Source: a virus
Reading direction: 5' to 3' (one strand)
Virus record (IMG/VR): IMGVR_UViG_3300010885_057925
Span: 32,001 to 96,000 of that record
DNA length: 64,000 bases
The notes under the pieces are model-generated. The model was not told the origin of the DNA. It made no database searches and worked only from the letters and a program-made list of their open reading frames with translations. A program made the translations under genes and the position numbers. Below, piece after piece: positions 11,863 through 32,180 of the stretch; within the stretch, counting starts at the first letter, position 1, and each line of letters starts with the position of its first letter.

Positions 11863-12351
11863 TCAATACTGCAACACACAGTTGTCGAAGCGGAGCGTGA
11901 GCGAGATTTCCATGGGATCGTCACCGTCGTAAGCGAGATCACCGAAACCAGCCGACGTAATGAATGCTCCCTTGATGTCCCAGAGCTCGACGACGGTACC
12001 GACGGGGTCGAGCATCTTGAGCTGGCAGTCACGCTTGTAGAAGTCAGCGTAACCAGCGCGGCCTGACACCGACTCGAAGTGGGTACGAACCCATTCCATG
12101 ACCTGCTGCGCACCGGACGGTGCGATGGCATCGTAAAGAGTCACATCGAGAGTGTCGAATGTGGTCTTACCGGCGATGTAGCGGCGAGAGTTGATCCAGG
12201 GGATCTCCTTCTCCTCAGTCTTCACGCTGGGACGCTTCGTCGACTTGATGAGGTAAGCGTCAATTCCTTCGATCGCGAATACCCATCGGTTCTTCCTCTT
12301 TGGTTCGAACTTGTTGGGTAACATGTCAGTGACTGAGAGTGTCTCGGCCAT
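11863..12351 (-). CDS. gp19: Tail tube protein (T4 gp19-like)
   Basis: FEPKRKNRW, YIAGKTTF, VMEW, GYADFYK, LDPVGTVVELWDIKGAF, ISLTLRFD; directly after the sheath; GGAG SD. Confidence 0.9.
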   Translation of the reverse strand: MAETLSVTDMLPNKFEPKRKNRWVFAIEGIDAYLIKSTKRPSVKTEEKEIPWINSRRYIAGKTTFDTLDVTLYDAIAPSGAQQVMEWVRTHFESVSGRAGYADFYKRDCQLKMLDPVGTVVELWDIKGAFITSAGFGDLAYDGDDPMEISLTLRFDNCVLQY

Positions 12352-15300: not shown

Positions 15301-15395
15301 GTTCCAATAACACCGGCCGAGCGGCCGGAGGGCTGCGCCTCGACCACTCCACCTGTGCTGTCAATCTCCCTAACGCTTATGCCTGGGGCTGCCAT
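12393..15395 (-). CDS. gp18: Tail sheath protein, paralogue 2 (1000 aa)
   Basis: N-terminal PGISVREID; C-terminal sheath signature WTAPAGYNRA...GINPL...GQRTL...RINVRRLL...FEPN...PTKSAEFISIDF. Confidence 0.92.
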   Translation of the reverse strand: MAAPGISVREIDSTGGVVEAQPSGRSAGVIGTANQGVAFVPVTFANNSQFSREFGNADADTFAPLALNEWLRNASAGTYVRVLGAGDGNKRTTSGNNTGRVTNAGFVVGSKQIQEGNGQLGNNPYAVAGGISGRTYFLGCYMSESAGSWVFSESGIQTSTAAAPIVRGVLMAASGVQLTLSSSAPGTTSDTYGTTAVGASPAKGWFTGSVDLRSGKQDFVLLLNGHADSAEYPSILTASFNPKDQGYFANTFNRDPLALERAGYVLYSHYDIFDAYAVVTGSGVAAQANIRRVSTTAAIEEVAFCLTGSRAYNDGTSVFPNYENFEDRFTHPSTPFFISQGNSPKDLFKIHARSDGAYANDLYKVSIKNIKAPTTEGAYGRFTVEIRDWNDTDDSPVVLESYLDCDLDPDSDNFVGKKIGDLNTYYDFDRAAGSQKIVEEGLYGKVSQRVRIELSDEVIDKLVPVSSLPVGFRGHYHLVTAGTGFLSTGSLHSSAHLSVPTTGARQPPIPFRRSITVGGASGATTAVGESKYYWGVQFDTANSVSRPNDGVSTTTAATRDASLAQQAKYFPRFHTTYQNPWVGDNAGAADVSGSVLDADRFNNNRFTLERVQVQTGSDGLIDGARWDEAVYQRDGAIDNSIGGRFIAAPTDFSNASVRSYLKLTTFMQGGFDGANIFDSSKLRMTDAATRREMDNSNQGGLSGPTVAAYRKAVDIMGEKAFADVHLLAIPGQRHPVVTDYALSAMQTRFDALYIMDVEHKDGQNNFITASLGASSYPAVNVSYTTTRFTNRGLNNSFGAAYFPDAVMGLPADPARRVRVPASVPVLGAFAQNDSLGYAWTAPAGYNRAVLNVEELGTKFLVENVDTVYDAGINPLVSAPGVGPVVNGQRTLLAEGSSLDRINVRRLLIEVRRRVRAVANTILFEPNREATIARFNAAVSPIMKQVQEQRGVDRYRVQIDTTTTTQADIENNTIRGKIFLQPTKSAEFISIDFEARNAASF

Positions 15396-15428: not shown

Positions 15429-18400
15429 TCAGACGAACTCGACGCCCGCCGGGGTGATGATAAAGTCGACCGCGATGAATTCGACTGCGCGGGTTGGGAC
15501 GAACACGATACGACCATTCAGTCTGCTGGCCGCGATGTCAGCTGGCGTATTGTTTGTCTCGTCCATGACGATTCTGAACTGCTCGATTCCGGCCTGCGCG
15601 CGGACGAGATTCAAGAGTGGTGTTGCCTGATCGATGAAACGCTGACGCGTGGTCTTGTCGTTCGGCTCGAAGATGAGACCGCGTGCCACCGCAGCGATGA
15701 CTCTCTTAAGCTCGAGGAAGAGACGACGGACGTTGACGCGATCCAGGGCCGACTTCGAGAGCTGCAGGGTCTTCTGTCCGAAGATGACGAACCCGCTTCC
15801 CGGGAATGTACCGATCGGGTTGATGTTTGCCTCGTAGAGGCTGTCACGATCCGCAGTGCTGAGACGAACCTCAACGTTCGAGACGAAATCGAGAGCTCCC
15901 CTGTTGAATCCTGCCGGAGCGTACCACGGGTACGAGACCTTATCACTGTAGGCAAGAGCGCCGAGAGCAGCGATTGAAGCGGGTACCTTGACGCGTCGGG
16001 CTGCGGCAGCGTCATTGACGTAGACATCCGGGAAGTACGTTGCTACGTAGCTGTTGTTGACGCCGCGAGAAGCGAAAGCGTCGATTGTCTTGGAGACGTT
16101 GGGACGACCCGCCGAATCATCGAAGAGTCTTACGTTGTTGTCATCATACGCCGGTGTGTCCATGACGTACATTCCGAAAGCGTAGGAATCGAGGCGACGC
16201 GCGAGGTACTCGGTCACGAGTGGGTCCTTGACACCGGGAACAGCGATCATGTTGACGTTGACTGTCAGCTTGTCGGTCATCATGCGGGAAGCAGCGCGGT
16301 AGGAGTTGACTGCGTTGTTCGCGAGTTCCTCTCCACCAGCGTTGTATCCAAGACCAGAAGCTGCAATCGGAGCAGCACCTACAGCGGCGCGCCCGCCAGC
16401 TTCGGTTGATGTTGCACGGTCACCGAGAAGAGCAGCAGCTTCGTCAAAGATGTTGACGCCGTCGAAACCACCGTAGAACATCGTCGAGAACTTCGCGTAC
16501 TCAGAGAACTTGTTAAACGTCTGCGCTGAGCCTGAGAGCAGAGACGCGAATGTCAGGCGATCGAGAGACGCTCCCGCGTCGTTGATCCTGTAATCCGTCG
16601 TAGAGGGAACACCGTTTCTGATGTAAGCAGCTTCTCTGATGTGAGACTCAACCGTTCCAGTGATGTCAGAAAGAGTCTGGTTGGAGAAAGCGACGCGGGC
16701 GAGAGTGAACTTGTTCGCGTTGAACGCGTCCGCATCAGAGCCCGTCACCAGCGCGTTGAGCTTCTGGATTCCCTGCATCTTCGCGTACGAAGTGATGAGG
16801 GAGTTGAACTCGGTTCCAGCGTTAGCGTTCATGACCGCGTTGGTCACGGAGCCGGTGGACGGAAGACGCTCGAACTTGACGCCCCAGTGAAGCCTCGAGT
16901 CAGGCGTCTCCAAGGGATCTGCTGCACCGATGTAGTTCAAACCGGCGAGAGCGCCCTGGGTGACCTTGAAGCGGAAGGGGAGCGGGGGAACGATCGCCGA
17001 ATCGAGCGTGTTGAACGTGCCGACGCCCTCCAGTCTCGTGGGACCGCCTGGTGTGCCATAGCTGCGCCCGCCGAGTGAGAGAGTCGCCGAAGTGTCGGTA
17101 AGTGTCTGGGTCGTTCTAACAACGGGAATACCCCTGAAACCGAAAGGAAGAGCTGACGCTGGGACCAGACCTGAATCAAGCTGGGTGGAGGGGACGACCC
17201 TTATGCGACGGCTGACGTTCGGGTAACGACCGCTCACCTGCAGGCGACGCTCAGACTCATCGACAGCGTCGAAGTTGAACGTGACCTTCTTGTCTCCGAC
17301 CTTCCGGGCAATGAAATTGGCGCTTGAAGGATTCAGATCACAACCGCCGAACACCTCAAGTATCCGCGGGTTCGTGTCGGTGTCATAGAGGTCTCTAACG
17401 ATGACATCGAACGTTCCATACGGGTTCTTCGGGTCAACGGACGCTCTCACATTCGCGATAGAAACCTTGCAAACTTCATTGGCACCCGCGCCGTCGGACA
17501 GAGTCTCAAAATTGAATAGATCGTACTCCATCGATCCATAAGGCTGTGAGATGATCGCAGGAGTTCTAGCGTTCGAGTAACGTGTATCGTATCGACCGAA
17601 GTTTTGCAGGTAAGCGCTTGAACCAGAGAGGATCGCGACGTGTCCCATTCCGACCGTGTCGATTCCCGTGAGCTCATCCTCGACAGCGAAGTCGAGGTAG
17701 AGACAGTGCTGCTCTTCCTGGAGACGACGGGGATCAGTGTTAAGAACCTTGCCGAAATAATCAGAAGAGCGAGGGTCAAGAGAGGCCGTGACCATCTTGA
17801 CACCGCCGATTCCGTCGGTGGAAGAGAACGCTGAACCGAGAGAAGAAGAGATCGCGAACTTGAACTTCTTGTAGGTCGGAGAAGCGCTGTTAAGATCGGT
17901 CGAGGCGACGTCGTCCGTCGAAGCTCCGGTTCCCGTCCACGCAGCACCCGAACCCGTCATATCGAGAAGCATACCACGCGCGCCGGTAGGGAACATAAGA
18001 ACGCCGCGAATGATATTCAGAGTGTCAGAAGATCCCGGATTGAAGCTTGGATTGTCGCTGAAGATCGGGAAGCCCTTCCATTCCGAAGGGTTGGTCGTGT
18101 CAGCTGGCAGAGCGTGACGAGCCGCGAGAAACTGAACGGTGTTCGTGTTGCGTAAATCACCGGGTGGGAGACCGACGTTGGATCCCGTGACCTTGAAACC
18201 AGCATTGCGCACGGTTCCCTGAGAAAGAGTGGTGTTGAAGTCTGATGTATTCGAGTTTGCACCGGCACCGAGGATCCTGATGAATGTAAGGGATCCCTTG
18301 TGCTTTAAAAATTCGTTCGCTGCGTAAGAGGCGGGGAACTTGGGGTCAAGTCCACCGAATCTAGCCTCGAAGTCCGAGAATGATGCCACCGTGGTGGGCA

Positions 18401-18527
18401 CGAAAGCGGGACCGGTGGCCGCCGCGCCGATAAGCCCACCCGGCACACCTGTGGGCTGCGCGCCCGGGGCGGCGAGTTCAATCTCCTGCTCAAAGAAACC
18501 AGGAGAGCGGAAGGTCTGTTCGGACAT
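15429..18527 (-). CDS. gp18: Tail sheath protein, paralogue 1 (1032 aa)
   Basis: N-terminal FRSPGFFEQEIE; C-terminal PWYAPAGFNRG...NINPI...FGQKTL...RVNVRRL...FEPND...PTRAVEFIAVDF. Confidence 0.92.
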   Translation of the reverse strand: MSEQTFRSPGFFEQEIELAAPGAQPTGVPGGLIGAAATGPAFVPTTVASFSDFEARFGGLDPKFPASYAANEFLKHKGSLTFIRILGAGANSNTSDFNTTLSQGTVRNAGFKVTGSNVGLPPGDLRNTNTVQFLAARHALPADTTNPSEWKGFPIFSDNPSFNPGSSDTLNIIRGVLMFPTGARGMLLDMTGSGAAWTGTGASTDDVASTDLNSASPTYKKFKFAISSSLGSAFSSTDGIGGVKMVTASLDPRSSDYFGKVLNTDPRRLQEEQHCLYLDFAVEDELTGIDTVGMGHVAILSGSSAYLQNFGRYDTRYSNARTPAIISQPYGSMEYDLFNFETLSDGAGANEVCKVSIANVRASVDPKNPYGTFDVIVRDLYDTDTNPRILEVFGGCDLNPSSANFIARKVGDKKVTFNFDAVDESERRLQVSGRYPNVSRRIRVVPSTQLDSGLVPASALPFGFRGIPVVRTTQTLTDTSATLSLGGRSYGTPGGPTRLEGVGTFNTLDSAIVPPLPFRFKVTQGALAGLNYIGAADPLETPDSRLHWGVKFERLPSTGSVTNAVMNANAGTEFNSLITSYAKMQGIQKLNALVTGSDADAFNANKFTLARVAFSNQTLSDITGTVESHIREAAYIRNGVPSTTDYRINDAGASLDRLTFASLLSGSAQTFNKFSEYAKFSTMFYGGFDGVNIFDEAAALLGDRATSTEAGGRAAVGAAPIAASGLGYNAGGEELANNAVNSYRAASRMMTDKLTVNVNMIAVPGVKDPLVTEYLARRLDSYAFGMYVMDTPAYDDNNVRLFDDSAGRPNVSKTIDAFASRGVNNSYVATYFPDVYVNDAAAARRVKVPASIAALGALAYSDKVSYPWYAPAGFNRGALDFVSNVEVRLSTADRDSLYEANINPIGTFPGSGFVIFGQKTLQLSKSALDRVNVRRLFLELKRVIAAVARGLIFEPNDKTTRQRFIDQATPLLNLVRAQAGIEQFRIVMDETNNTPADIAASRLNGRIVFVPTRAVEFIAVDFIITPAGVEFV

Positions 18528-19857: not shown

Positions 19858-20510
19858 TCGTCACCGTAGAATGACGAATTGATTCCATCTGGCGACACTT
19901 TCTTCGGCCCCGTGAGCGGAGCGTCGAGCTTGCCATCAGCCTGAAGCTCTCGACGATCCGAAGTCTCGCCAAGTTCGTTCGTGGAGGATCCACGTTGCTG
20001 GACGAACGTATCCTGAGTGATCTTGTTCGTATCGAGATTCTGGGCTGCAGGACCGAGTTGCGTGACTCTGTTGATGAGACCTTCGCGAGCCTGCTTGCCA
20101 ACGAGTTTGTATCCTGTCACGTGCTCGACCTGTCCGAAGATCTTGCTGATCGAAATGACCTGCGCGATCTCGAACATGATCGATCCGTACGACATGAAAT
20201 CGCCCATCTTCATACGAAGATTCTTGTCGTTTAAATCCTGCGCGTGGACTCGAACTTCGATAGAATGATATTTCTCGCTTCCGAATTTGTTGGTTCTGAT
20301 TTCACCAGGTGACCATTCAACCAGCGCGTCGATCTCTATCGGAGGATCGAACACCTTCTCGATCGATTCTTCATAAACGTCGTGTACGGATGTTACGTCT
20401 GACCTGACAGGGTAGTAATAGATCTTCTGGCCTATCACGTCCTTCATGACCTCTTTCGTTAGATCACTGATCAGGTCTATTTCTCTAGGAGTGATAAAGA
20501 GTCTTGCCAT
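19854..20510 (-). CDS. Neck / head-closure protein (gp14-like)
   Basis: IGQKIYYY, VYEES..KVF.PPIEI, GDF motifs; follows the gp13-like gene. Confidence 0.7.
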   Translation of the reverse strand: MARLFITPREIDLISDLTKEVMKDVIGQKIYYYPVRSDVTSVHDVYEESIEKVFDPPIEIDALVEWSPGEIRTNKFGSEKYHSIEVRVHAQDLNDKNLRMKMGDFMSYGSIMFEIAQVISISKIFGQVEHVTGYKLVGKQAREGLINRVTQLGPAAQNLDTNKITQDTFVQQRGSSTNELGETSDRRELQADGKLDAPLTGPKKVSPDGINSSFYGDE

Positions 20511-20515
20511 CTCGA

Positions 20516-21694
20516 TTATCCTATGGTGATGACACGACCCATCGGGATCGGAGTCGCTCTCAGTATCTTCTGCAGGTTGTCGATTTCCGCAGCTTTCGTC
20601 TCTATGAGCTTGTTGTAGGTGAGGGTGTCGAGCATCTCTCGAAGGTCCGTCTTGAGCTTTTCCTTTTCTTCCTTCGCCGTGCTCTTCAGATCAGATCCAT
20701 CGAGTTGCAGCTCGCCACCGGGTATCGGTACCGACCCGAATTTAGACCTGATCATACCGAGAAGTTCCTTACAAAGAGCTAACGCGTATTGCCTCACCCA
20801 CTGACGTGCTATCGAATTTACCTTCGCGTATACGAAATTTCCATATGGGACGTTTGAGAGATTGGAAACGCCGTTTATGGAACCATCGCCGGGAATTGAG
20901 GACACCAATGGGTTGTTCTCGAAACCGACCCTGACCCAAAGCTTCAAGGGAATGTCGGCCGTGGGCATTGGGAATATCCTGAGCTTCGTTCCGGTCACAC
21001 GATAGCTGTAGTTAGATCGACGGACCCTGTTCGATATGTTCATCTGACCGCCGCGAAGGATGTCCTCGAAGACTGGCAGGACGTAAAACACAGTCTCTGG
21101 TGTGAATGACTCGAAAGAGAACTCGTTGTTGAGATAGTTGATCGCCGAAGTTGTATCGAAGAATCGATACGCAGCCATTGGATTAAAATGCATGATCTCG
21201 AAGATGCGCATCTTACCTTGCGTCGGATTCATCGATGAGCTGGCGATGGGAGCTCCCGAGGCGGGATCGAGAAGATCAGTGTACAGATCATAATCCTGAA
21301 CGTTCTGTCGAAGCTGAATCGATCCTGTCGCTGAATTGTATGTGCCTCCCAGACCTGCTTCAACCGCGTACGGTTCAGCCATACGAATAACATAGTTGAG
21401 CGTGTCTCTTGGGAATTTTTGCGTAGCCTCATTCAAGCTTCCGGTTTGCATTCCCAGAAGCGAGAGAAGTTGGCTTCTAGCCTGATACTGATTAACGATC
21501 GAGGCATACTCGAGAAATGACTCCTCGAAGCATGCCCAAATCTGCTTTTTTGTAAGTTCAACAGAAAGCACATCATCACCGAGACGACGCTTCACGAATG
21601 TGATCATCGCGTCAGCCTCTGTTTGAAAATCACCATCAGAGTCGAAGAATCCGAATGGAGTCGGATTAAGAGTTGATGTGAATGTTGTTGACAT
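20516..21694 (-). CDS. Neck protein (gp13-like head-tail adaptor)
   Basis: RRLG...VELT..QI, WVRQYALALCKELLG.IRSKF..VPIPGG...LDG motifs. Confidence 0.8.
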   Translation of the reverse strand: MSTTFTSTLNPTPFGFFDSDGDFQTEADAMITFVKRRLGDDVLSVELTKKQIWACFEESFLEYASIVNQYQARSQLLSLLGMQTGSLNEATQKFPRDTLNYVIRMAEPYAVEAGLGGTYNSATGSIQLRQNVQDYDLYTDLLDPASGAPIASSSMNPTQGKMRIFEIMHFNPMAAYRFFDTTSAINYLNNEFSFESFTPETVFYVLPVFEDILRGGQMNISNRVRRSNYSYRVTGTKLRIFPMPTADIPLKLWVRVGFENNPLVSSIPGDGSINGVSNLSNVPYGNFVYAKVNSIARQWVRQYALALCKELLGMIRSKFGSVPIPGGELQLDGSDLKSTAKEEKEKLKTDLREMLDTLTYNKLIETKAAEIDNLQKILRATPIPMGRVITIG

Positions 21695-21721
21695 GCTAGC
21701 TCCCTCAAGTAAATAGGAGCC

Positions 21722-23515
21722 TCACTCGTCTTTCATCATCTGCCTTTTCAAAGCTTCGTACAGTATCCGAGATATAGAATGACGCTTTGAATCCTGAACC
21801 TTACCGTATTCATTATTCAGAATTTTCCAGTATTTTTCCTTCATCTCTGGCGCGAGGGTGGCAGGAATAAACTTTTTGAAGCTGTCTTCGTCTCCGTCTT
21901 TCAGGAACTCTCGCATTTTTGTACCTGAAATAGAGACTGTCTCACTACGAGGCACGGGTCGCTGTCGAAATTTTTCGATGACGATCGGATCTCTGATCAT
22001 CGCTTCAAGCTTCTCTTTAGAGTATTTCGTCGATGTGTCCTCGTCATCAGCGTAAAATATGAAAGAGCTAACCACGTTTTTGAGCTCTCGCATCTTGTCG
22101 ACCGCAAGCCCGAGCGGAGAATCAGGGGTGATCACCAGCGTAGCGTTCGGATAATCTAGATGAAATTGCGGTTCTAGCACAACCCTCCAGGCATCGATCA
22201 TAACACCCGCGGGAAGCTCATCACGACCAGAAGTTGATGTCAAGACTAGAACTTCATCGCACTCTCTCGTCGCTAATTCAATAACGCCCCAGTGACCTGC
22301 GTGTACCGGCTTTCCAGATACGACGAAGATACCCAAAGTGAATCCGCTCTTGTCACCCACCTCGAGACGCTTCATGATGCGGCTCTTTGTGGTCAAGAAA
22401 AGATCCTCCTGCCTTTGAATCATGGACTTAGGATGCTCAAGCCGCCCTAGTCTGTTGGATATAGCGAGATCAAAGTAGCACTTATTTCTGATAGTCTCCA
22501 GAATGCCGTCGAGATCATTTTCAGGTATATTCTTACGAGACTCAGGAGCTATCTCACGAGCTAGCTCGTCCGCGATGACGATGACAGAATCCCAGTATGA
22601 CTGCTCTTTCTGAGGATCTTCTGCCCTAAACTTCTTCTTCATCCCGGAGCGGTGCTCAACGTCATGCTGATCGAATCTAAGAGCCTTGTACAGTGTCTTC
22701 GCTAGCGATGGCTTGAATACCGAACCTTCGGCGGCTGCTGTTTCAGACTCCGTTGATAGCGTTGTGTCGAAATCGGAGAAAATATCGTAAATAGCTTCAA
22801 CGATTTTGATCGGACGATCCGGGCTCGAGTCATCATACGCGGCGCGGAGCTTGTCCATCGAGCTTTCGATTCTACGCTTGATACTCGGGCTTTTTGTTCC
22901 CCTGATCAGATCTTCAATGCTTCCAAGATTTCCCTCGAATAGCGCTGGGTATGTTCCAACCTCCAGCATCTTAGCGTATTCTGCTAGCCGACCATCATCG
23001 TCGACCGGATTTATGTTGGAGACGAGATGAGTGCCAGTTACCTTGTAGCGTGTTGGACCGAAAAGCGTTAGAAAAATACCGTGTTTCTGAGGGTAGTCGC
23101 GGCTGATCGTTGGCTTTCTCTGCACAAATTCTAGGAAAAATTCTGTTCCTTGCGGGATTGAAGCAGTGCCAGAATGAACTCTTGCCATGTGATCATGCAC
23201 AAGAGAATACTGCGCAATGCCAGACGATTTCTCTCTAACTTCCTTCTCACGTGCAGCCAGTCCGCCGACCTCACCTGGGAAAATGACGTTCCCCTTGTAG
23301 GCGATGATCCAATTTTTGGCGTAATTATTGGGATCAAATTCGTTGTTACGACGAATCAGAGTGAGTTTTGTGCCGTCGATCTTTTCTTCGATTTTTAGAT
23401 TGGGGTCGCTCAGAAATGCTGCCGCTTTCACTCGATCATTAGCGCGAGCTTTCGCAGAAGTTCCAGCTCGAGCCATCGACCCCTTTAGGTCATCTATCGA
23501 AATGTTAGTCGACAT
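21722..23515 (-). CDS. Fusion: ATP-dependent RNA/DNA-ligase-like nucleotidyltransferase + HxGH (NMNAT/cytidylyltransferase-class) domain
   Basis: Ligase motifs I EKIDG, III FFLEF, IV EGSVF, V LYK. C-terminal GIFVVSGKPVHAGH and ISGTKMRE. The likely start is ATG 23515 (TAATG overlap, GGAGAG SD) rather than TTG 23527. Confidence 0.75.
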   Translation of the reverse strand: MSTNISIDDLKGSMARAGTSAKARANDRVKAAAFLSDPNLKIEEKIDGTKLTLIRRNNEFDPNNYAKNWIIAYKGNVIFPGEVGGLAAREKEVREKSSGIAQYSLVHDHMARVHSGTASIPQGTEFFLEFVQRKPTISRDYPQKHGIFLTLFGPTRYKVTGTHLVSNINPVDDDGRLAEYAKMLEVGTYPALFEGNLGSIEDLIRGTKSPSIKRRIESSMDKLRAAYDDSSPDRPIKIVEAIYDIFSDFDTTLSTESETAAAEGSVFKPSLAKTLYKALRFDQHDVEHRSGMKKKFRAEDPQKEQSYWDSVIVIADELAREIAPESRKNIPENDLDGILETIRNKCYFDLAISNRLGRLEHPKSMIQRQEDLFLTTKSRIMKRLEVGDKSGFTLGIFVVSGKPVHAGHWGVIELATRECDEVLVLTSTSGRDELPAGVMIDAWRVVLEPQFHLDYPNATLVITPDSPLGLAVDKMRELKNVVSSFIFYADDEDTSTKYSKEKLEAMIRDPIVIEKFRQRPVPRSETVSISGTKMREFLKDGDEDSFKKFIPATLAPEMKEKYWKILNNEYGKVQDSKRHSISRILYEALKRQMMKDE

Positions 23516-24915
23516 TAACTCTCCCAAATGATGGATTCTAGAATTCGATTCAATTTTCTACGATTCGATTCGTCAACCGAAGGTTGATCGGAGTCTTCCG
23601 AAAAACCTTCCTGACCTCTTACCTTGTACTTCGAGTAGAAATTCGATTTTAAACCCCTGAGATCTATTGTCGAAGATTCTACCTCGGGAACAGCCTGCTT
23701 GAACACCTCGAGTATTCTGTCTTTAACAGACTCGTCCTCTTTAGGGTCGGTAGCTGATAGCTGTTGACCTTCCTCTCCGAAGAATCTATTGACAACCTCT
23801 TCGTACAATCTAACAATCTCGGGTGGGCTCATCCTCTGTTTGATTATTTCCAGCAGACCGGTGAACGAGCCAAAGTTATTAATATCTTCCTCACTTGGCG
23901 GAGGATTTTCACCAAAAAGATTCGAAAAAATTTCGCTTAAATCTTGTGTGGAATCCGTGCGTTCGACGCGCTTCAAGTACTTGTAAGCTTGCTCACCATT
24001 CAAATTCCAATCCAACTTTACGTATCTGCTTCCATAACCCGAAACAAGATCAAATGACTTGAGAGGTCGAAGGGGAGCCGGCTCCATCACGCCGGTTTCT
24101 TTGTTCCTCGTGCGCTTGAACTTGGGCGCCTCTGGGGTTGCAGCCGGCGTGATCGCGCGCGCGTTTAAGGGCGGGGGCGATTTAATGGACGCTAGCGACA
24201 TGAGAAGCACCTTATGCGCTAGACCCTTAACGCCCTGAGTAATGTCTCGCCATGAGGAAGAATACGAGAATTTAGCCCATTCGGTGGGACGCCCTTGATT
24301 ATATTCGGAGCCCTCGAAATCTATCTGGAAGAAAGTATCTCCAGCGCCTTCCGGAACTGTAGAGTCCCATGTATATGAAAACAAAGAGTTTATCTGATGA
24401 GAACCCGGGACTTTTTTATTATGACCGATGTACGCAATCTTTCTTGTGAGCTGCTGGTCCTCTCTCCTATTCAAGGTAGAGTACAGATCATTCATTTTTT
24501 CAGCGGGAACTGTCAGGTCAATATCTCCGACAGTCGGCTTGTATTGTATAAATTCATCGTCCGAAAGAGTCTCGGGCGGCGCGAAAAGATGAGCGGATGA
24601 GCCGTTAAACGCGAATCCAGCTCCTAGAATATCGTCACGTTGACCTGGGTCCCATATCGTAGACCCGTGGTCTTTTTTGAACTCAGAGTCCAAAACTCTT
24701 AGCATCTCGATGACATCGCCTCTGAGCTGCTGACGAGTTATCCTACCAGTCGTGAGATCTATCTTTTCAGCCGTAGCTACACGACCCCGAAATTTTTTGA
24801 TAGCCTCAGGTCCTTTCACGAGTCCCGTTTCCGGATCTCTCACTAGAGCTCTGGTGTTTCCACCTTCGTTGATCGACTTTTCGTTACCAAACATGAAGCG
24901 AGTAATGCTAAACAT
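23515..24915 (-). CDS. Pol-beta superfamily nucleotidyltransferase (466 aa)
   Basis: FNGSS ... VGDIDLTV ... FQIDF provide the GS, DxD and third Asp catalytic pattern; N-terminal SINEGGN. Confidence 0.7.
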   Translation of the reverse strand: MFSITRFMFGNEKSINEGGNTRALVRDPETGLVKGPEAIKKFRGRVATAEKIDLTTGRITRQQLRGDVIEMLRVLDSEFKKDHGSTIWDPGQRDDILGAGFAFNGSSAHLFAPPETLSDDEFIQYKPTVGDIDLTVPAEKMNDLYSTLNRREDQQLTRKIAYIGHNKKVPGSHQINSLFSYTWDSTVPEGAGDTFFQIDFEGSEYNQGRPTEWAKFSYSSSWRDITQGVKGLAHKVLLMSLASIKSPPPLNARAITPAATPEAPKFKRTRNKETGVMEPAPLRPLKSFDLVSGYGSRYVKLDWNLNGEQAYKYLKRVERTDSTQDLSEIFSNLFGENPPPSEEDINNFGSFTGLLEIIKQRMSPPEIVRLYEEVVNRFFGEEGQQLSATDPKEDESVKDRILEVFKQAVPEVESSTIDLRGLKSNFYSKYKVRGQEGFSEDSDQPSVDESNRRKLNRILESIIWES

Positions 24916-24920
24916 GAAAC

Positions 24921-24927
24921 TATGTAT
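24921..24927 (-). promoter_or_regulatory. Putative late promoter ATANNTA (ATACATA), probably giving a leaderless mRNA
   Basis: Only 5 nt before ATG 24915, no SD, and located downstream of the capsid terminator. Confidence 0.45.
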
Positions 24928-24961
24928 GCGTTTTCCGCCCTAAATTGACCGTCGTCCGCCC

Positions 24962-24995
24962 AAATAAAAAGGGTCCACCCCGAAGGGTGGACCCT
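24962..24995 (-). terminator. Rho-independent terminator with C(UUCG)G tetraloop after major capsid gene
   Basis: Minus strand AGGGTCCACCC-TTCG-GGGTGGACCCT-TTTTATTT: perfect 11-bp stem plus U tract. Confidence 0.92.
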
Positions 24996-25021
24996 AGTTA
25001 GAGCCCTAGGCCCTCAGAGCA

Positions 25022-26905
25022 TCAGATGATGTTGAGGTCGAGGACGGTGACCGTTCCGTAGAAGTCGGAGCGGACCATCTTCTTGCCGTAGCGGGTCATC
25101 ACGCCCTTACGGGGTGTGAAGTCTTCCGGCGCGAAGATGGTGGGCGTGACGATGAGCGGCACGTACGGAGCGTAGACGTACCCGGTCTCGAGGTAGGAAC
25201 CGCCCTTGAAGCCGACGAGGATCTTGTTGCGGGGGAAGTAAGGATCCTTGTAGACCGTGAAGCGGTTGCTGAGAGTACCAACCTTCTCAGCGCCGATCGA
25301 GAACGGAGCGCCGACCTGGCCGGAGCCGTCGATGCTGTAGCTCGGGCGGTAGTACGTGGAAGCCTCGAGGATCGTGGCGACGTCCGGACCGACCACAATG
25401 AAGTTCGCGGAGCCGCGAAGCGTCTTGCGGTGGATCTCGTTGCCGACGTCGATGATCGTCTCGGTGAGGGTCTCGTACCACTCGCGAACGGTGCCGGTGA
25501 ACATCGGGCCGATGTTGCCAGCGCCGCCGGTTGTCTGGTAGTTACCGGTGGTCTTGTTGACGAACTTGCCAGGAGCGCGGCTCCAGAAGTAGTTCGCACC
25601 AGAGGCCTGTGTGAGGAGGTCGTTCAGGATCTCGCGATCGAGCTCGAGAGCAATCTGCTCGGAGAGGATCTGGGTGAGCTCAACCTCAGCGTCGATGCTG
25701 TGGTAGGCATTCAGATCCTGCGCGAGCTCCGGGGACCAGCGAGCGCGGAGCTTGCGGGTCGTCGCAGTGACGGCGATTGACTCGATCTTGATGTCGATCT
25801 CAGGGATGACCGGAGAGGGGCTCGTGCCGAAGTTCGACTCGAAGACCGGGATGGTGATCGTGGAGCCGGAGGAGCTCTCAACGTCGAGTGCCGTGCCGAG
25901 CGGGTAGCTGACTCGGAAAGCGTTCAAGCCGAGTGCACCAGCCGGGTCGGAGGTCACGACTGCCGTGGCCGGGATGACCATCAGGACGTGCGTGCCGGAG
26001 AGCGGTGTCGGAGTGAACACTGTGCCGCTCCAGGAGCCGAGCTGGTTGAGGCGACGGATGTTGACAACGCCGTTGCCACCCTGGAAAGTCTCGCCGGGGA
26101 CCCCGGTGCCCGCGAGGGTCGACGCGGTCGTGAAGAGCGCGATGTCCTTGACGAGCGTCTGATCCATGGAGGAGGAGAGCGGACCGGTCGGAACGACAGC
26201 GAACTTGAAGGTGGTGCCACCCTCGATCGCGGTCGTGACCTGGGGATCGAAGCCGATGAGTCGGCCGTCGGTACCGGACGTGAAGATGAAGCTGGATGCT
26301 GCACCGCTGAAACCCATCGAACCGAGGAACGAGCCGGTAGCTGAGAGCGTGAGGACGGTCTGGCCGTGGACGCGGCTGTAACCAGCGCCGGCGAGATCGT
26401 ACATACCACCGGTTGCGAGAGAGCCGCTCTGGACTCCCTTGCCCACGGGGTTGTTGTAGATCGACTGACCGACAGAGTAGGTCGCCTTTGTGGAGGCGTT
26501 GCCCTGGCCGTCGATGTCAGATGCGCCACCGCGGTTGGTGCCGTAGGTGTAATCCAGGTAGAAGAGCAGACCGGAAGGAAGGCTCATGGGCTGGATCGAG
26601 ACGAGCTCGTTCGCCACGAGACCGCCGAACACGCGGCGGACGATGGGGAACGCGATGTTCGAGAAGCCGCGGATGTCGCCAGAGCCCTGGCCCGAGGCGG
26701 CGCCGGTGGAGAGAGAGTTGCTCTCGCGGAGGAGGTTGGCGGTCTGGTTCTCGAGGAGACGAGCCATGTTCTCACGGTTGACACCGTCGAGGCCACGGAG
26801 GAGGCCGGTACGGTTCCACTTCTCGACGAGGCGGCTGTTCTCAGCGCCCACGTCACGGCCACGGATGCCCTCAGAGAGCTGCTCCAGTGTGAAAGTCTTA
26901 GACAT
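25022..26905 (-). CDS. gp23: Major capsid protein (T4 gp23-like)
   Basis: MARLLENQ, FPIVRRVFGGLVANELVSIQPMSLPSGLLFY, TRKLRARWSPELAQDLNAYHSIDAEVEL, GYVYAPYVPL, PRKGVMTRYG; very high GC and strong codon bias. Confidence 0.95.
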   Translation of the reverse strand: MSKTFTLEQLSEGIRGRDVGAENSRLVEKWNRTGLLRGLDGVNRENMARLLENQTANLLRESNSLSTGAASGQGSGDIRGFSNIAFPIVRRVFGGLVANELVSIQPMSLPSGLLFYLDYTYGTNRGGASDIDGQGNASTKATYSVGQSIYNNPVGKGVQSGSLATGGMYDLAGAGYSRVHGQTVLTLSATGSFLGSMGFSGAASSFIFTSGTDGRLIGFDPQVTTAIEGGTTFKFAVVPTGPLSSSMDQTLVKDIALFTTASTLAGTGVPGETFQGGNGVVNIRRLNQLGSWSGTVFTPTPLSGTHVLMVIPATAVVTSDPAGALGLNAFRVSYPLGTALDVESSSGSTITIPVFESNFGTSPSPVIPEIDIKIESIAVTATTRKLRARWSPELAQDLNAYHSIDAEVELTQILSEQIALELDREILNDLLTQASGANYFWSRAPGKFVNKTTGNYQTTGGAGNIGPMFTGTVREWYETLTETIIDVGNEIHRKTLRGSANFIVVGPDVATILEASTYYRPSYSIDGSGQVGAPFSIGAEKVGTLSNRFTVYKDPYFPRNKILVGFKGGSYLETGYVYAPYVPLIVTPTIFAPEDFTPRKGVMTRYGKKMVRSDFYGTVTVLDLNII

Positions 26906-26960
26906 ATCTTAAAAACTCCAATTTTAGAAATTTGAAACTTAACTGGACCTTACGATCCGA

Positions 26961-28679
26961 TTATTTGATGCCTGCGAGGATCGCCCAACGATCCACCTCG
27001 ACGGATTCATTAACGGCACTGCCGGACTTCGTCGATCTGGAGGATGAGCCGAGAACACGACCCTCGTTCACGGTGCCTGTCTTTGTCTTGAGCGACTCGG
27101 TAAGGCTCGTGTAGAGAAGTTTTGCCTCCCTAACTGACTTCGCAGCGTCGAGCGATTCAACAACGGCTCTCTGCTGACGGGGGGTGAGGTCACGGTTCTG
27201 CATAAGCTTATTGACGTAGAGAAGCTTAGCATTGAACAGGTTAACCTCCTCAAGCTGCTCGCGCAGGGTAGCATTCGCGCGCTCAGTCTCGGCGAGCTGG
27301 ACCTTGAGGTCCCGATTCATGCGGGCCTCCTGCACTCTGGCCTCGCGCTCTGACTTGGCTGCCTTGACGGCCTTCTTCGAGACCTCAAGCGCCTTCTTTG
27401 CGACCGCCTCGGTGTCGCTGGCGTCATCGTCGCCCTCGTTCACGTTGAGGTCTGTATCCTTGGACTGCATGACGAGGTGCTTGCCGGCCTTTCCACCGCC
27501 GAAGCTGCCTGCCATAGCGTCGGCGATCCCGCGGCCCTTGCCACGAACAGCGCCCTTCTTCGCTTCACGAAGACGTGTGAGCTCACGACGAAGCATGGAC
27601 TCGTCGACATGGAAAGTTCTCTCGTCCATATCCTCTTCCTCTTCCTCCTCGTCCTCGTCCTCGTCTTCCTCTTCGTACATCTCTTCGATGTCTTCGCCTT
27701 CTTCGTACTCTCCGTACTCTTCCTCGAGATCATCATATCCCTCAGAGGGAGCGGGGGGAGCTCCAGCAGCGGGTGCTGGGGTGGAGGACACATCGATCGG
27801 GGTCTCTTCGGCGCCGGCTTCGGGAGCTTCCTCGTCGCCGAACTCGATGCCGAAAGTCATACCCTTGAGCTTCTCCTTGAAGTCCTCGTCATCGAGACCC
27901 TCGAGGTCAGCGGGATCGAACACAAGCTTCGCCTCATTACGACGGGGCTTGGGTGATTCCATATTCTGTAGCAGGCGACGAAACCGCGCGCTGTTTGACA
28001 TAACACTCATCTCCTTTAAAAAATTATCGAATTGAGCTCTGTTGGACGAGCTCCCTCCATTAGATATGAGGCGCTCCTGCAACTTCATGACGTTTTTCAG
28101 AAGAATTGAGTAAGCAGCCTTGAAATTCTTGCTTTCGCTTAGAGAAATACGCCGGGAAACCCTGCCCAGGTCTCTCAGCTGGCCACGGACCTCGTCAAGG
28201 CTCGTGGACTTATTGTTCTTAGACCCTAGAACTAGATCGGCGAGGCCCTGCAGACCCTCTTTGTTGAGCTCGACCTCGACGTCGTCACCCTCGGCCTCAT
28301 CAGCCTCGGCTGTAGCAGAAGCTTCGCCGTGCTTGTCAACTCGAACGTTGATCTTAACCTCTGTTCCAGATGCAGTCTTTGTGGTAACGGTGTGCGTAAC
28401 CTCTTCGTCAGGATCAGGAGCACCAGCTCCCTGGATAGGAGACGGAGAGGCAGGCGGAAGAGCAGCTGGATTCATCGTCGGCTCGTCTGGAAGGGCGTCA
28501 AGATCGAGATTAGGAATCTCCTCGTCTACCTCTTCCTCCGCTTCGGACATGATCTGGCGTTCGATCAGATTCCTGATCTTGGGAGTCATAGCTTCGATGA
28601 TCTTATTCTTAGCATTACGCTCAGCCATCTCTCTGAGTGCTCTAGCGTCTGCGATTGCTTCTTGATACAAATTTGACAT
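26961..28679 (-). CDS. Prohead scaffold/core protein (gp22-like)
   Basis: Directly upstream of the capsid gene; coiled-coil, with an acidic tract; EAIADA..LRE.A..NAK and LEEVNLFNAKLLY; ends RWAILAGIK. Confidence 0.75.
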   Translation of the reverse strand: MSNLYQEAIADARALREMAERNAKNKIIEAMTPKIRNLIERQIMSEAEEEVDEEIPNLDLDALPDEPTMNPAALPPASPSPIQGAGAPDPDEEVTHTVTTKTASGTEVKINVRVDKHGEASATAEADEAEGDDVEVELNKEGLQGLADLVLGSKNNKSTSLDEVRGQLRDLGRVSRRISLSESKNFKAAYSILLKNVMKLQERLISNGGSSSNRAQFDNFLKEMSVMSNSARFRRLLQNMESPKPRRNEAKLVFDPADLEGLDDEDFKEKLKGMTFGIEFGDEEAPEAGAEETPIDVSSTPAPAAGAPPAPSEGYDDLEEEYGEYEEGEDIEEMYEEEDEDEDEEEEEEDMDERTFHVDESMLRRELTRLREAKKGAVRGKGRGIADAMAGSFGGGKAGKHLVMQSKDTDLNVNEGDDDASDTEAVAKKALEVSKKAVKAAKSEREARVQEARMNRDLKVQLAETERANATLREQLEEVNLFNAKLLYVNKLMQNRDLTPRQQRAVVESLDAAKSVREAKLLYTSLTESLKTKTGTVNEGRVLGSSSRSTKSGSAVNESVEVDRWAILAGIK

Positions 28680-28704: not shown

Positions 28705-28711
28705 TAACTAT
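28705..28711 (-). promoter_or_regulatory. Putative late promoter ATANNTA (ATAGTTA) for scaffold-capsid operon
   Basis: 25 nt upstream of the 28679 start. Confidence 0.5.
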
Positions 28712-29307
28712 ATCGTTGTTTTGTCTTTTTCGAGCTCTTGTTCGTCGTGAATAGCTCTAATAAGACGTCTGAGCCTGGACATCGTCATCTCATCAGATGT
28801 TGGAATGTCAGCTAGATTATAAGCGTTTTCCGCAGATCCTAAATCACGCAATGGGTACGAATGTGACCAGCCCGCCGTCGAGCCTCCGAGAGATATTCTC
28901 GCTGGAGCTGGTCTAATCGACGGACCGTCAGCTCCCGCTCCGAGGACTCCCTGCTTGTTCTTGTAGAGATCTGGAATGGGAGACATGCTGCGGCCGGTCG
29001 TCTGCTCCCACATTCTGAAATCTGGACCTACGAAATTCCTGCGATCGATTGATCTCGTCGCGTATGAATCACCGGGAACATGACCCTGACCGGTCTTATT
29101 CCCGATCGCGACCTGCGTCTCTAGCTCGTTTTCGTCGTCTAACGGCTCTTCGTCATCAACATCAAATCTAGCTGGTTCGATGTACGGCCATGAAGACTGA
29201 CCATTGCGCGGCTTATTTCTACCCGCGTTATTAATAGAAACGTATCCGCGGTCAACTCCTGAATCGTAGTTCGGAAAGTTGGCCTCGGATACGCTTCTTC
29301 TCTTCAC
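28708..29307 (-). CDS. Hypothetical head-region protein (199 aa)
   Basis: AGGA SD with GTG start; tightly packed in the head cluster; C-terminal LRRLIRAI helix. Confidence 0.65.
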   Translation of the reverse strand: MKRRSVSEANFPNYDSGVDRGYVSINNAGRNKPRNGQSSWPYIEPARFDVDDEEPLDDENELETQVAIGNKTGQGHVPGDSYATRSIDRRNFVGPDFRMWEQTTGRSMSPIPDLYKNKQGVLGAGADGPSIRPAPARISLGGSTAGWSHSYPLRDLGSAENAYNLADIPTSDEMTMSRLRRLIRAIHDEQELEKDKTTI

Positions 29308-29901: not shown

Positions 29902-30219
29902 TCAGATGTTCTCGATGATCTCGCGGCGAAGCTTCTGAACGGCCTCATTGATCTCTGAAAGCTGATGAGCCAGCTCAGCGCTCTCCTTCTGGAGATTCTT
30001 CATGTGATCAACCTTCGAAGCGATCGTGTTGGCGAGCTCCGAAGCCTGAACTTCCTTCGTACCCTTGGCGACTTTCGCAAGATCATCAGGCTTTCCAGAG
30101 GGCATGCCCTTACGATTGGGGGCGGGCTTCCTGGACTTCTTGCGATCAGCCAGCTTCTTCTTCTCTTCGAGTATGATGCGGCGGAGGAGAGCGGGTGTGA
30201 GATTGACGACCTTAGACAT
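29902..30219 (-). CDS. Small basic coiled-coil head-region protein (105 aa)
   Basis: AAGGAG SD; N-terminal LTPALLRRIILEE. Confidence 0.75.
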   Translation of the reverse strand: MSKVVNLTPALLRRIILEEKKKLADRKKSRKPAPNRKGMPSGKPDDLAKVAKGTKEVQASELANTIASKVDHMKNLQKESAELAHQLSEINEAVQKLRREIIENI

Positions 30220-30278: not shown

Positions 30279-30731
30279 TCACTTTTTTGTCGTCGCGAAT
30301 GCCATGTCGGCCCAATTTCCCGCGCCTTCGAATATCTGCATCGGATCGATGCTGGAGACTGGACCTCCAGCTCCGGGATTTCTCTCTGCTTCCATCATGC
30401 TGGGCAGAGTGTTCTTCATAGTATCTTCAAAAATTGATTGCATCACGCTTCGTTGATTAGGCGGAAACGCTGAGGAAGCTTCGGCAGCGACAGCAGCGTA
30501 TTTCTGTGTTTGTCCCTGAGCGCGAGCAGCGACCTTGGAGACTCCGTCAGAGAACGACATGGAATCAAGATGCTTTTTTCCAGTAGGAAGCGGAGCGGGA
30601 ACTGGATCAGCTCGGCGAGTCGATTCACGAATACCGGGCGTCTTTCTCTCGGGTTGTGAGATTCCTTCCATGAGAATCTCGATCAAGCATTCCTTAACGA
30701 TATCTTTAAGATCAGATCTTGTCAAAGCCAT
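30279..30731 (-). CDS. Hypothetical head-region protein (150 aa)
   Basis: TAATG coupling to the protease gene; N-terminal DLKDIVKECLIEILMEG. Confidence 0.75.
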   Translation of the reverse strand: MALTRSDLKDIVKECLIEILMEGISQPERKTPGIRESTRRADPVPAPLPTGKKHLDSMSFSDGVSKVAARAQGQTQKYAAVAAEASSAFPPNQRSVMQSIFEDTMKNTLPSMMEAERNPGAGGPVSSIDPMQIFEGAGNWADMAFATTKK

Positions 30732-31351
30732 TATTTTTTCCAGGACATTATGTCGTTGAATATTCTATCGATTCTATCGCTACGATTAAATGTTCTGGAA
30801 AGTTCTGATGGAGCAATTTGACGACCCTCGCGCATCATGAAAGCGCCGGGTGTAGAAGGTTCTGAAACGAAGTCCCAGCATATAAGCTGGAAGTCATCCT
30901 GCACTATCTGCTGATCACCCGATTTTTTAGTAGAACCAACGCCTCTGGATGAGATTCCAAGAGTGACCCCACTCTCGACAAGGCTCTGGAGGATCTTACC
31001 CATCGGAGTATCAAGAATCTCAACCGTACCGTAGCAGACCAAGCCGTCCATGTAAGCTTCACGAACGATATGACTCACCTTCTTCAGCTCGACCACGGAC
31101 GAATCAGGGTGATCACACTCGCCCAGAGCCCTGTTTTCGCGAATGAACTTCTGGTAATTGCGAACCTCACGCTCGAGTATCTCACGTGGGTATATTCTTC
31201 CGTTCTGGTTGATCGTTTCAGCCTTCTGGAGAATTCCTTTCATCATAATCTTACCACCGTTCTGCTCGCGATTCTCCTTGATGGACTTCGTGTCATAGGA
31301 AAATGGAGACCACTCGGTTAGAAGCGTCAATGTAGAAGATTTGTCACTCAT
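30731..31351 (-). CDS. gp21: Prohead core protein protease (T4 gp21-like)
   Basis: NQNGRIYP, ALGECDHP (catalytic His), GISSRGVGS (catalytic Ser), WDFVSEPSTPGA. Confidence 0.95.
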   Translation of the reverse strand: MSDKSSTLTLLTEWSPFSYDTKSIKENREQNGGKIMMKGILQKAETINQNGRIYPREILEREVRNYQKFIRENRALGECDHPDSSVVELKKVSHIVREAYMDGLVCYGTVEILDTPMGKILQSLVESGVTLGISSRGVGSTKKSGDQQIVQDDFQLICWDFVSEPSTPGAFMMREGRQIAPSELSRTFNRSDRIDRIFNDIMSWKK

Positions 31352-32180
31352 CTTTTGACTCGAGCTCCTGCTGTAGCTGGGTTAGTTGCATGAACTTTAC
31401 GACAGTATCGTCATCGAGCCGAGTGATGTCTATACCGTTGACTTGCTTGCTTATATCGTCTATTTTCTCAAGAAGAATTGTGCTGTTTGTGTTTTCTTTG
31501 AGTCTTTGAAGGCCTCTGTTAACTCGACGCTTCGTAGATTCTAAGAGTTTAACATCGGTTCTTCCCATCACGTAATCCTTAATGATGGAAGCCTGCTCAT
31601 GCGTTAGCTTTCCCGACCATTTCTTCTCGAACTTCTCTGTCATGAGCTTAACGGACAGAGCGTTAACATTTTCATCCACCATTTCATCAAGATCGGGTGT
31701 GGTGCCCTTATCTTTCTTAAGCCATTCGACCAGCTTGTGCTCATAATCAGTGACTCTCACGAGAGATGCATCGTCCGACTTTCTCCAATCGTTTATTAGA
31801 GTTTGAATCGTAGCATAAAGACGATACTCTTTGACGGGTTGATTGAAAAAATCGACATCATCTAGCGTGTGATTTATCTCGCGAATCAATTTGGATTTCT
31901 CAACGTCTAGCTGCTGCTGCGAGAACATGCGCGCTCCACGACGAGCTTCTTCGAGTATCCTAACTGCAAGCGGCTCAGATCGAGTAGTCGTGTTCAGAAG
32001 AGCTTGAAATAGACGAAACTCACGATACAGCTCGCTCCCGGGCTTGAAATACTTCTTTGTGATTTTCATGCACTGCAGAGCTTTGTCTTCATTGTTCTCT
32101 AGCAAAAACGCAGAAGTACGACGTAGCAACTGCTCATAAATGATGCCCACGTTTCTTTTCTTATTATGCTGATTACTCAT
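31344..32180 (-). CDS. Conserved-type head-assembly region protein between portal and protease (278 aa)
   Basis: Likely start is ATG 32180 (MSNQHNKKRNVG) rather than GTG 32228; helical; overlaps both neighbours. Confidence 0.7.
   Translation of the reverse strand: MSNQHNKKRNVGIIYEQLLRRTSAFLLENNEDKALQCMKITKKYFKPGSELYREFRLFQALLNTTTRSEPLAVRILEEARRGARMFSQQQLDVEKSKLIREINHTLDDVDFFNQPVKEYRLYATIQTLINDWRKSDDASLVRVTDYEHKLVEWLKKDKGTTPDLDEMVDENVNALSVKLMTEKFEKKWSGKLTHEQASIIKDYVMGRTDVKLLESTKRRVNRGLQRLKENTNSTILLEKIDDISKQVNGIDITRLDDDTVVKFMQLTQLQQELESKDE

Follow-up and report, generated by a model that had tools for sequence, protein, structure and literature searches.

A PolX-like nucleotidyltransferase gene coupled to a ligase-HxGH fusion gene in a T4-like phage: a predicted fill-and-seal repair pair with a candidate capsid-targeting leader

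Two coupled genes between the capsid and neck genes

We analyzed a 64,000-nucleotide window (the whole stretch of DNA studied here, positions 32,001 to 96,000 of the IMG/VR virus record IMGVR_UViG_3300010885_057925). This window belongs to a viral contig of 171.5 kb, estimated to be ~51% complete, from a T4-like myophage; genome coordinates are window positions plus 32000. Two minus-strand open reading frames (ORFs) lay within positions 21722-24927. The first, P0001 (466 aa, 23515-24915), is a PolX-like nucleotidyltransferase (NTase), and the second, P0002 (597 aa, 21722-23515), is a predicted Rnl2-type ligase fused to an HxGH nucleotidyltransferase domain. We propose, at about even confidence, that they form a fill-and-seal repair pair with predicted activities, in which the PolX-like member is targeted to the capsid and the substrate is more likely RNA than DNA. 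The features of the locus are as follows:

23515-24915, minus strand: P0001, 466 aa, PolX-like nucleotidyltransferase of the Pol-beta fold
24865-24915, minus strand: P0001 leader, residues 1-17, ending I-N-E17 before G18-G19-N20 (predicted local distance difference test score, pLDDT, < 50)
23623-24864, minus strand: conserved core of P0001, residues 18-431, with palm, thumb-like region and helical C-terminal domain
23513-23517, minus strand: TAATG stop/start overlap coupling P0001 and P0002
21722-23515, minus strand: P0002, 597 aa, predicted Rnl2-type ligase fused to an HxGH nucleotidyltransferase
22361-23515, minus strand: ligase part of P0002, residues 1-385, with motifs I, III, IV and V followed by a helical domain and no oligonucleotide-binding (OB) fold
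21809-22345, minus strand: HxGH domain of P0002, residues 391-569, with H405-A-G-H408 and I-S530-G-T-K-M-R535
24921-24927, minus strand: ATACATA promoter-like motif, 5 nt before the P0001 ATG, without a Shine-Dalgarno sequence
24970-24995, minus strand: intrinsic terminator after the major capsid gene (11-bp stem, UUCG loop, U-tract; fold z -3.7)

The stop codon of P0001 (TAA) overlapped the start codon of P0002 (ATG), with GGGAGAG just upstream of the overlap. A first-pass annotation of this DNA had already described this coupling and a separate ATACATA motif following the capsid terminator, and we recovered both. ATACATA is a one-mismatch copy of ATAnTTA, a motif enriched upstream of genes in this genome (28/163 ORFs; the ATATTTA form was counted 8 times vs 0.23 expected). 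The consensus ATA(C/T)TTA was present 5-9 nt before the orthologous ATG, after the hairpin, in 10 of 11 relatives, in agreement with the late expression that the same annotation had anticipated; on sequence grounds, the promoter-like element upstream of P0001 is conserved and late-type. Conserved at so short a distance (5-9 nt) before the ATG, it implies a late transcript with no leader or almost none, and the P0001 mRNA is probably of this kind. Across the contig, the spacing of ATAnTTA to the start codon was bimodal, either 14-35 nt with a Shine-Dalgarno sequence (tube, sheaths, scaffold) or 1-10 nt without one (P0001 and many genes carrying the N-terminal tag described below), and the shorter spacing suggests a class of leaderless late mRNAs. 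Examples of ATAnTTA were found in the regions upstream of window positions 11863, 12393, 15429, 26961 and 29902.

Predicted folds, catalytic residues and the conserved module

Searches with individual sequences gave little. Pfam returned nothing usable for P0001 or P0002 alone, a PDB search with the single sequences gave no match, PHROGs placed both proteins in families of unknown function, and Foldseek comparison with viral models matched only uncharacterised phage proteins. We therefore describe the two proteins from AlphaFold models built on 30-33 homologues (pLDDT 85 and 89) and from the corresponding alignments, in which the three distinct nucleotidyl-transfer folds named in the first-pass annotation were found with their motifs in the places given there. 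P0001 contained G105-S106, D131-I-D133 and Q197-I-D199; residues G105, S106, D131, D133 and D199 were invariant in 30 homologues and lay on the expected helix and strands of the model. Since the catalytic residues of P0001, like those of P0002 described below, are invariant across homologues, the motifs are more than chance resemblances.

The best structural matches of the P0001 model were family X DNA polymerases, with which the palm and the thumb-like region aligned over about 160-200 residues, while structural matches to CD-NTases covered the generic palm only or had a root-mean-square deviation (rmsd) above 8 Å. Judged by the model, P0001 is more specifically PolX-like than CCA-adding-like or CD-NTase-like, which upholds the Pol-beta fold originally assigned and narrows the choice among the subgroups then considered. 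The PolX palm and thumb families (PF14792, PF14791) had no match in P0001, its relatives or a search of the phage genome; RlaP (PF10127) had none for P0001 at E <= 1 or for 30 relatives at E <= 0.01; and no helix-hairpin-helix (HhH) or 8-kDa lyase domain was detected in P0001. Homologues were expected in other phages, and an exhaustive profile search for the P0001 family recovered 753 representatives (50% identity), all of them unnamed. This widespread family, of unknown function in PHROGs, has no Pfam model. A scan of 185,579 cellular genomes with a single peptide pattern found no relative. On two viral contigs (L078:10025-16243 and L081), the family occurred in a polyvalent-protein form, a single 2073-aa ORF with the leader MINKTILNE|GGN, the PolX-like domain, and then an Amidoligase_2 domain and DUF6934.

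The N-terminal part of P0002 contained the ligase motifs E44-K45-I-D47-G48-T-K, E129-F130, E263-G-S-V-F and Y276-K277. In 33 homologues, residues K45, D47, G48, E125, E129, F130, E263, G264 and K277 were invariant, as was H408 of the second domain. Foldseek matched residues 1-385 to T4 RNA ligase 2 (2hvr, E 1e-7; 1s68, E 7.5e-6) and to the ligase domain of fungal Trl1 (Trl1-LIG, E 2.5e-6), and the C-terminal portion of this part was modeled as helices (residues 301-386), not as an OB fold. PF09414 matched 10 of the 33 homologues at E <= 0.01 (best 7e-7) but neither P0002 itself nor any protein in the phage genome search. Alignment of the ligase family with the single T4 Rnl2 sequence by hhalign had a probability of 1%, yet it aligned motifs I and III, motif I being EKIDGTK in P0002 and EKIHGTN in T4 Rnl2. 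By modeled fold and motifs, residues 1-385 of P0002 are an Rnl2-type ligase of predicted activity.

The second domain of P0002 carried K402-P-V-H-A-G-H408 and I529-S-G-T-K-M-R-E536, in which P403 was nearly invariant and S530 and R535 were at least 90% conserved in the 33 homologues. The modeled fold belonged to the PF01467 superfamily, with phosphopantetheine adenylyltransferase (PPAT) and NadD scoring equally, and PHROGs gave a weak 'cytidyltransferase' signal at the P0002 C-terminus. The model thus identifies a PPAT/NadD-like HxGH domain. The chemistry of such domains, transfer of a nucleotidyl group to a phosphate to give A(5')pp(5')X, is formally step 2 of the ligase reaction, and on this basis direct 5'-adenylylation, or reversal of abortive App-ends, may be proposed as a guess. 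To our knowledge, neither adenylylation of 5'-phosphate polynucleotides nor App-end reversal is known for the HxGH superfamily.

Genomic linkage places the two proteins in one functional unit, as far as gene neighborhoods and fusions can indicate. We ran local hidden Markov models (HMMs) of the three domains on 80 viral loci. In 50, no more than 10 kb separated the PolX-like gene from the ligase and HxGH domains, which were usually encoded by the adjacent gene; these two domains always occurred together (50/50 linked loci). Three cluster representatives (P0178, P0212, P0252) were single-chain PolX-ligase-HxGH proteins with the domain order of the two genes described here, and four others (P0242, P0263, P0270, P0271) were HxGH-PolX-like fusions. 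Among cultured phages, both proteins were encoded 2.5 kb apart in Vibrio phages of ~190 kb and ~65 kb apart in Campylobacter Firehammerviruses. In Vibrio phage Va1, a CCA-adding tRNA nucleotidyltransferase gene was located ~4 kb upstream of a leaderless PolX-like gene and the ligase-HxGH gene 1.3 kb downstream of it.

Additional partners were detected in relatives. A Zeta/AAA_33-type P-loop kinase was fused to the PolX-like domain in two independent cases (P0138, P0205), and of 61 more distant loci, 19 had a calcineurin-like phosphoesterase (Metallophos_2, E 2e-12) next to the module. Locus L031 was arranged as ligase-HxGH, phosphoesterase, kinase-PolX-like. An ATP-dependent DNA ligase was a recurrent neighbor in 8 loci. 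Kinase, phosphoesterase, nucleotide adder and ligase make up a heal-and-seal inventory, and together with the precedents discussed below this leads us to read the pair as a fill-and-seal repair unit.

Leader, processing junction and virion packaging

The conserved core of the P0001 family starts at an invariant Gly-Gly-Asn. Across 67 distinct viral loci, GGN was preceded by Glu 48 times, by the start Met 18 times and by Leu once, and position -3 was L/I/V/F/M in all 48 Glu cases (vs a background of 2.1% per position), although the leaders varied from 4 to 45 residues and were otherwise unrelated in sequence. A genuine M-GGN start was confirmed in locus L003 by an in-frame stop four codons upstream. 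Cleavage after Glu and removal of Met before Gly would expose the same N-terminus, and a [LIVMF]-x-E rule without exception at the ends of unrelated leaders is hard to account for without a protease. In the T4 capsid targeting sequence (CTS), ten residues are enough for targeting, positions 8 and 10 govern processing, and the logo reads L/I-x-E (PMC9026906); the P0001 junction, I15-N-E17|G18, fits this rule. Residues 1-17 are therefore a candidate capsid-targeting propeptide that would be cut by the prohead protease, and the gp21-like site suggested by the first-pass annotation, SINE|GG, turned out to be strikingly conserved, with a gp21-type protease encoded in the genome.

Capsid targeting in this phage may extend to many other proteins. 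An amphipathic N-terminal tag of the L-R-x-I-I-R-E-E type was present on at least 15 unrelated proteins of this genome. Two small head-module proteins were among them, as were an AAA_33 P-loop kinase (PF13671, E 1.2e-11) and an LRV/HEAT-repeat protein tagged at its N- and C-termini. C-terminal copies outside the training set also emerged from a weight-matrix scan (for example, window 28708-29307). The tag resembles a code that would direct many cargo proteins to the capsid, and one homologue of P0001, P0044, carried a leader of the same LRxIIRE type. The genes concerned and those around the pair are listed below:

30731-31351, minus strand: T4 gp21-type prohead protease (Peptidase_S77; PF03420, E 2.5e-25, above the Pfam cut-off), the presumed processing enzyme
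29902-30219 and 30279-30731, minus strand: small head-module proteins with the LRxIIRE-type tag
Genome coordinates 5590, 14216, 28455, 144956, 148733, 151347, 157020, 163380, 164466, 168116, 168916, 169588 and 170874, outside the window: further tagged genes
25022-26905, minus strand: major capsid protein gene, the upstream neighbor
20516-21694, minus strand: gp13-type neck/adaptor gene, the downstream neighbor

On the minus strand, portal, S77 prohead protease, small core proteins, scaffold, major capsid protein (major head protein, phrog_138) and terminator precede P0001 and P0002, which are followed by the gp13-type adaptor, a gp15-type protein, two sheath paralogues and the tube. A relative with 52% identity had the same gene order plus one small gene at either side of the pair, indicating that the capsid-neck interval is both a conserved home for the pair and a variable slot. 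The two adjacent tail-sheath paralogues (~1000 aa each; window 12393-15395 and 15429-18527, minus strand) matched phrog_23 in their C-terminal third only, and Campylobacter phage vB_CcoM-IBB_35 has three gp18 copies. Outside the window, 20 tRNA genes were located within 16 kb (genome 147053-163242), with tagged genes in between.

Virion proteomics of a relative bears on the packaging of P0001. Gene 1-56 of IBB_35, a P0001 homologue by its coordinates that starts MKLSELMFILE|GGN, was detected in virions by mass spectrometry (MS) at 17% coverage, above the 2.5% of the portal, in a listing that reports protein presence with the N-terminus unmapped (Carvalho et al. 2012, PMC3322345). Gene 2-25, the homologue of the ligase P0002, was in the same list at only 2.9% (PMC3322345). 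In IBB_35 the two homologues were on different contigs (L005, L006), each near a radical-SAM gene. Loading into the head, which the first-pass annotation had suggested for all the enzymes, is thus best upheld for P0001, and we consider its packaging in the virion of this phage somewhat probable; for P0002, packaging is possible, though we lean against it.

Several observations qualify the proposed repair pair with a capsid-targeted member. P0002 had no leader, and only a few distant ligase-HxGH homologues carried L-x-E leaders of their own. An ExsB homologue was also present in the IBB_35 virion list, so carry-over of non-structural proteins could have occurred (PMC3322345). The S77 protease was found in near-complete genomes of leader-bearing and leaderless phages alike; its presence therefore neither refutes cleavage nor discriminates between the two types. 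T4 rnlB also adjoins a head gene, gene 24, and so location next to head genes, which the first-pass annotation had taken as a sign of packaging, is by itself no evidence of it. The kinase and phosphoesterase were absent beside the module in this window; the phosphoesterase HMM had no match in the 171 kb of this phage, the fused kinase domains had no BLAST relative in this genome, and the tagged AAA_33 kinase was encoded elsewhere, away from the module. Finally, the C-terminal helices of P0001 and P0002, the other packaging sign put forward at first, did not score as this genome's tag and were dropped as LRxIIRE candidates (0.7 and 2.1 bits, ranking only 222 and 143 of 53,458 positions in the weight-matrix scan).

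Both proteins do end, in the close clade, in a conserved amphipathic helix with h-x-E (window 23515-23623 and 21722-21808), the tail motifs being V-D-E-S...L-I-E-S in P0001 and L-Y/F-E-A/S in P0002, and distant homologues had no such tails. These could be C-terminal processing sites like those of T4 Alt.

Two alternatives differ from the proposed pair in how much is packaged. In the broader one, a repair enzyme, possibly the whole PolX-ligase-HxGH unit, would be loaded into the head by way of a protease-cleaved leader, would be injected and would mend RNA or DNA cut by host defence nucleases ahead of phage gene expression, with the HxGH domain adenylylating 5'-phosphates or reversing App-ends; we regard this as a tentative proposal, less likely than not. 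If true, no earlier case of an injected cargo that repairs nucleic acids would be known. In the other, which we consider rather unlikely, the enzymes are an unpackaged cytoplasmic repair pair expressed late, the leader and junction serve folding, regulation or translation initiation, and the IBB_35 detection is carry-over. The ExsB, S77 and T4 rnlB observations would all suit this explanation, rnlB not being a known virion protein in spite of its place, and so would the many leaderless family members and the GC content of ~47% for the enzyme pair (20001-24000) and most of the genome, compared with 55-60% for the flanking structural genes; the capsid and scaffold genes (24001-28000) were at 56-60%. 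It has difficulty with the 48/48 [LIVMF]-x-E rule, with the higher coverage of gene 1-56 than of the portal in IBB_35, and with the P0044 leader, whose type is found on many proteins of this genome.

Proposed function and comparison with known systems

In the fill-and-seal pair that we favor, both genes would be transcribed from the late-type ATAnTTA element, the 17-residue leader would direct P0001 to the prohead core, and the gp21-type protease would cut after Glu17 to leave an N-terminal Gly-Gly-Asn. P0001 would then enter the cell along with the injected genome and so precede all phage gene expression. It is predicted to extend a 3'-OH end by one or a few nucleotides, and the P0002 ligase would self-adenylylate on K45 and seal the 3'-OH/5'-phosphate break. 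The HxGH domain may move a nucleotidyl group onto a phosphate and, as a guess, either make or resolve an A(5')pp(5')N-type intermediate or supply a dinucleotide cofactor. The likelier substrate is RNA, for example tRNA cut by host ribotoxins. RNA is favored because of the Rnl2 architecture, the partner enzymes and the 20 tRNA genes on the contig, and DNA is retained as a candidate because of the PolX resemblance and the capsid location; overall, we place RNA modestly ahead. Of the roles first listed for these enzymes, RNA repair was thus favored by the kinase and phosphoesterase linkage in relatives, and NAD restoration and signal decoy found no support.

Were the substrate the phage's own entering DNA, the same enzymes would act differently: the injected PolX-like enzyme would fill gaps or add ribonucleotides at nicks or breaks, which the Rnl2-type ligase would then seal. 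The logic of this scheme is that T4 Rnl2-type ligase needs a 3' ribonucleotide, and that bacterial LigD end joining and the Pol X and ligase of African swine fever virus (ASFV) provide models. The best structural matches of P0001 are after all DNA polymerases, a capsid-resident enzyme adjoins DNA and not RNA, DNA single-strand-break repair likewise draws on polymerase, ligase, kinase and phosphoesterase, and DNA ligase recurs as a neighbor. However, the ligase is of Rnl2 architecture with a helical C-domain in place of the OB fold, a kinase and a calcineurin-type phosphoesterase are the usual companions in RNA heal-and-seal, the literature links the combination of a Pol-beta NTase and an RNA ligase to RNA repair, and P0001 has no detectable HhH or 8-kDa lyase domain. 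On balance, we judge this DNA scheme unlikely.

A small-molecule pathway, with NAD+ or another dinucleotide rebuilt by the HxGH domain and a signalling nucleotide produced or imitated by the Pol-beta enzyme against Thoeris/CBASS-type defences, is very improbable: the obligate linkage to a polynucleotide ligase (50/50 loci) and the kinase and phosphoesterase fit polymer ends, the CD-NTase matches were of the poor kind described above, and no Nampt or Nudix partner turned up near the module in the loci examined, where no search was aimed at Nampt or NAD-salvage genes. Least probable is an offensive set, in which the NTase tails or blocks 3' ends of host tRNA or rRNA, or the ligase circularizes or joins host RNAs, for early shut-off; Pol-beta NTases are generally known to include tRNA-modifying toxins such as MenT-like enzymes and delivery with the genome suits a shut-off factor, but the kept partnership with ligase, kinase and phosphoesterase is a repair signature and nothing resembling a toxin-antitoxin context was observed.

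Combining a Pol-beta NTase with an RNA ligase is a recognised way for phages to counter ribotoxin defences, though one with few experimental tests. The leader ending h-x-Glu before Gly-Gly-Asn provides a clean sequence rule for capsid targeting, which could predict injected proteins in uncultured T4-like phages. If P0001 is indeed cargo, counter-defence by repair would operate from the first second of infection. The ligase-HxGH fusion may also conceal an end-activation reaction not seen before, with practical value for RNA ligation tools.

Individual parts of the module resemble several known enzymes. PPAT (CoaD) and the NMN/NaMN adenylyltransferases (PF01467) share with the P0002 domain the minimal Rossmann-like fold of ~160 residues and the H-x-G-H and I-S-x-T..R motifs, whereas the P0002 domain is fused to a polynucleotide ligase and PPAT and NadD tie as its nearest relatives. 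Family X polymerases (Pol beta, lambda, mu, TdT, ASFV Pol X) have the same palm order of G-S, D-x-D and a third Asp; P0001 differs in its lack of PF14792/PF14791 matches and of an 8-kDa/HhH domain, in the GS-DxD spacing of 25 residues, and in an extra N-terminal beta element and a helical domain at the C-terminus.

As systems, U-insertion editing in kinetoplastids relies on the RET2 terminal uridylyltransferase (TUTase) and the REL2 ligase. There, too, a Pol-beta-superfamily NTase adds nucleotides at a nick that an Rnl2-family ligase seals, although the biological setting is unrelated and the phage has no guide-RNA machinery. Heal-and-seal RNA repair is represented by T4 Pnkp with Rnl1 and by bacterial Pnkp (kinase, calcineurin-type phosphoesterase, ligase) with Hen1. 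In relatives, the module similarly has a P-loop kinase and a calcineurin-like phosphoesterase as neighbors or fusion partners, whereas the copy in this phage has neither adjacent, there is no Hen1, and a PolX-like NTase and an HxGH domain are added. The T4 internal proteins and Alt, with a CTS removed by gp21 (PMC9026906), likewise have a short N-terminal propeptide ending L/I-x-Glu and an S77 protease in the head module. They are enzymes delivered with DNA, and the counterpart delivery is predicted here from genes; where T4 delivers a nuclease inhibitor or ADP-ribosyltransferase, this phage would deliver a nucleotidyltransferase. T4 RNA ligase 2 (RnlB, gp24.1; PF09414) has the same nucleotidyltransferase fold (Foldseek E 1e-7), with a helical C-terminal domain replacing the OB fold, and its gene adjoins head genes; P0002, on the other hand, scores below the Pfam threshold, has an extra HxGH domain of 210 residues, and is encoded by a gene co-oriented and coupled with a PolX-like gene.

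The closest theme is that of RlaP (PF10127), which Burroughs and Aravind in 2016 reportedly described as partnered with Rnl1/Rnl2 RNA ligases in phages and bacteria. RlaP, a Pol-beta NTase, tracks RNA ligases in jumbo phages and, ahead of ligation, extends the 3' ends of damaged RNA by 1-2 nucleoside monophosphates (NMP) (Iyer et al. 2021, PMC7824862; Carruthers et al. 2025, PMC12776372). Both systems couple a Pol-beta-superfamily NTase genetically to an ATP-dependent RNA ligase, both are predicted to add 3' nucleotides and then ligate, and RlaP is common in large phages with many tRNA genes, of which this contig has 20. In contrast to RlaP, P0001 and its 30 relatives have no PF10127 match and the P0001 fold is nearest to the PolX palm and thumb, the ligase is always fused to HxGH, and many P0001 members carry a predicted cleavable leader. 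We place the module within the known theme of repair by a Pol-beta NTase and an RNA ligase, from which it is set apart by its PolX-like enzyme, by a ligase that always comes fused to HxGH, and by a candidate capsid-targeting leader that only some members have.

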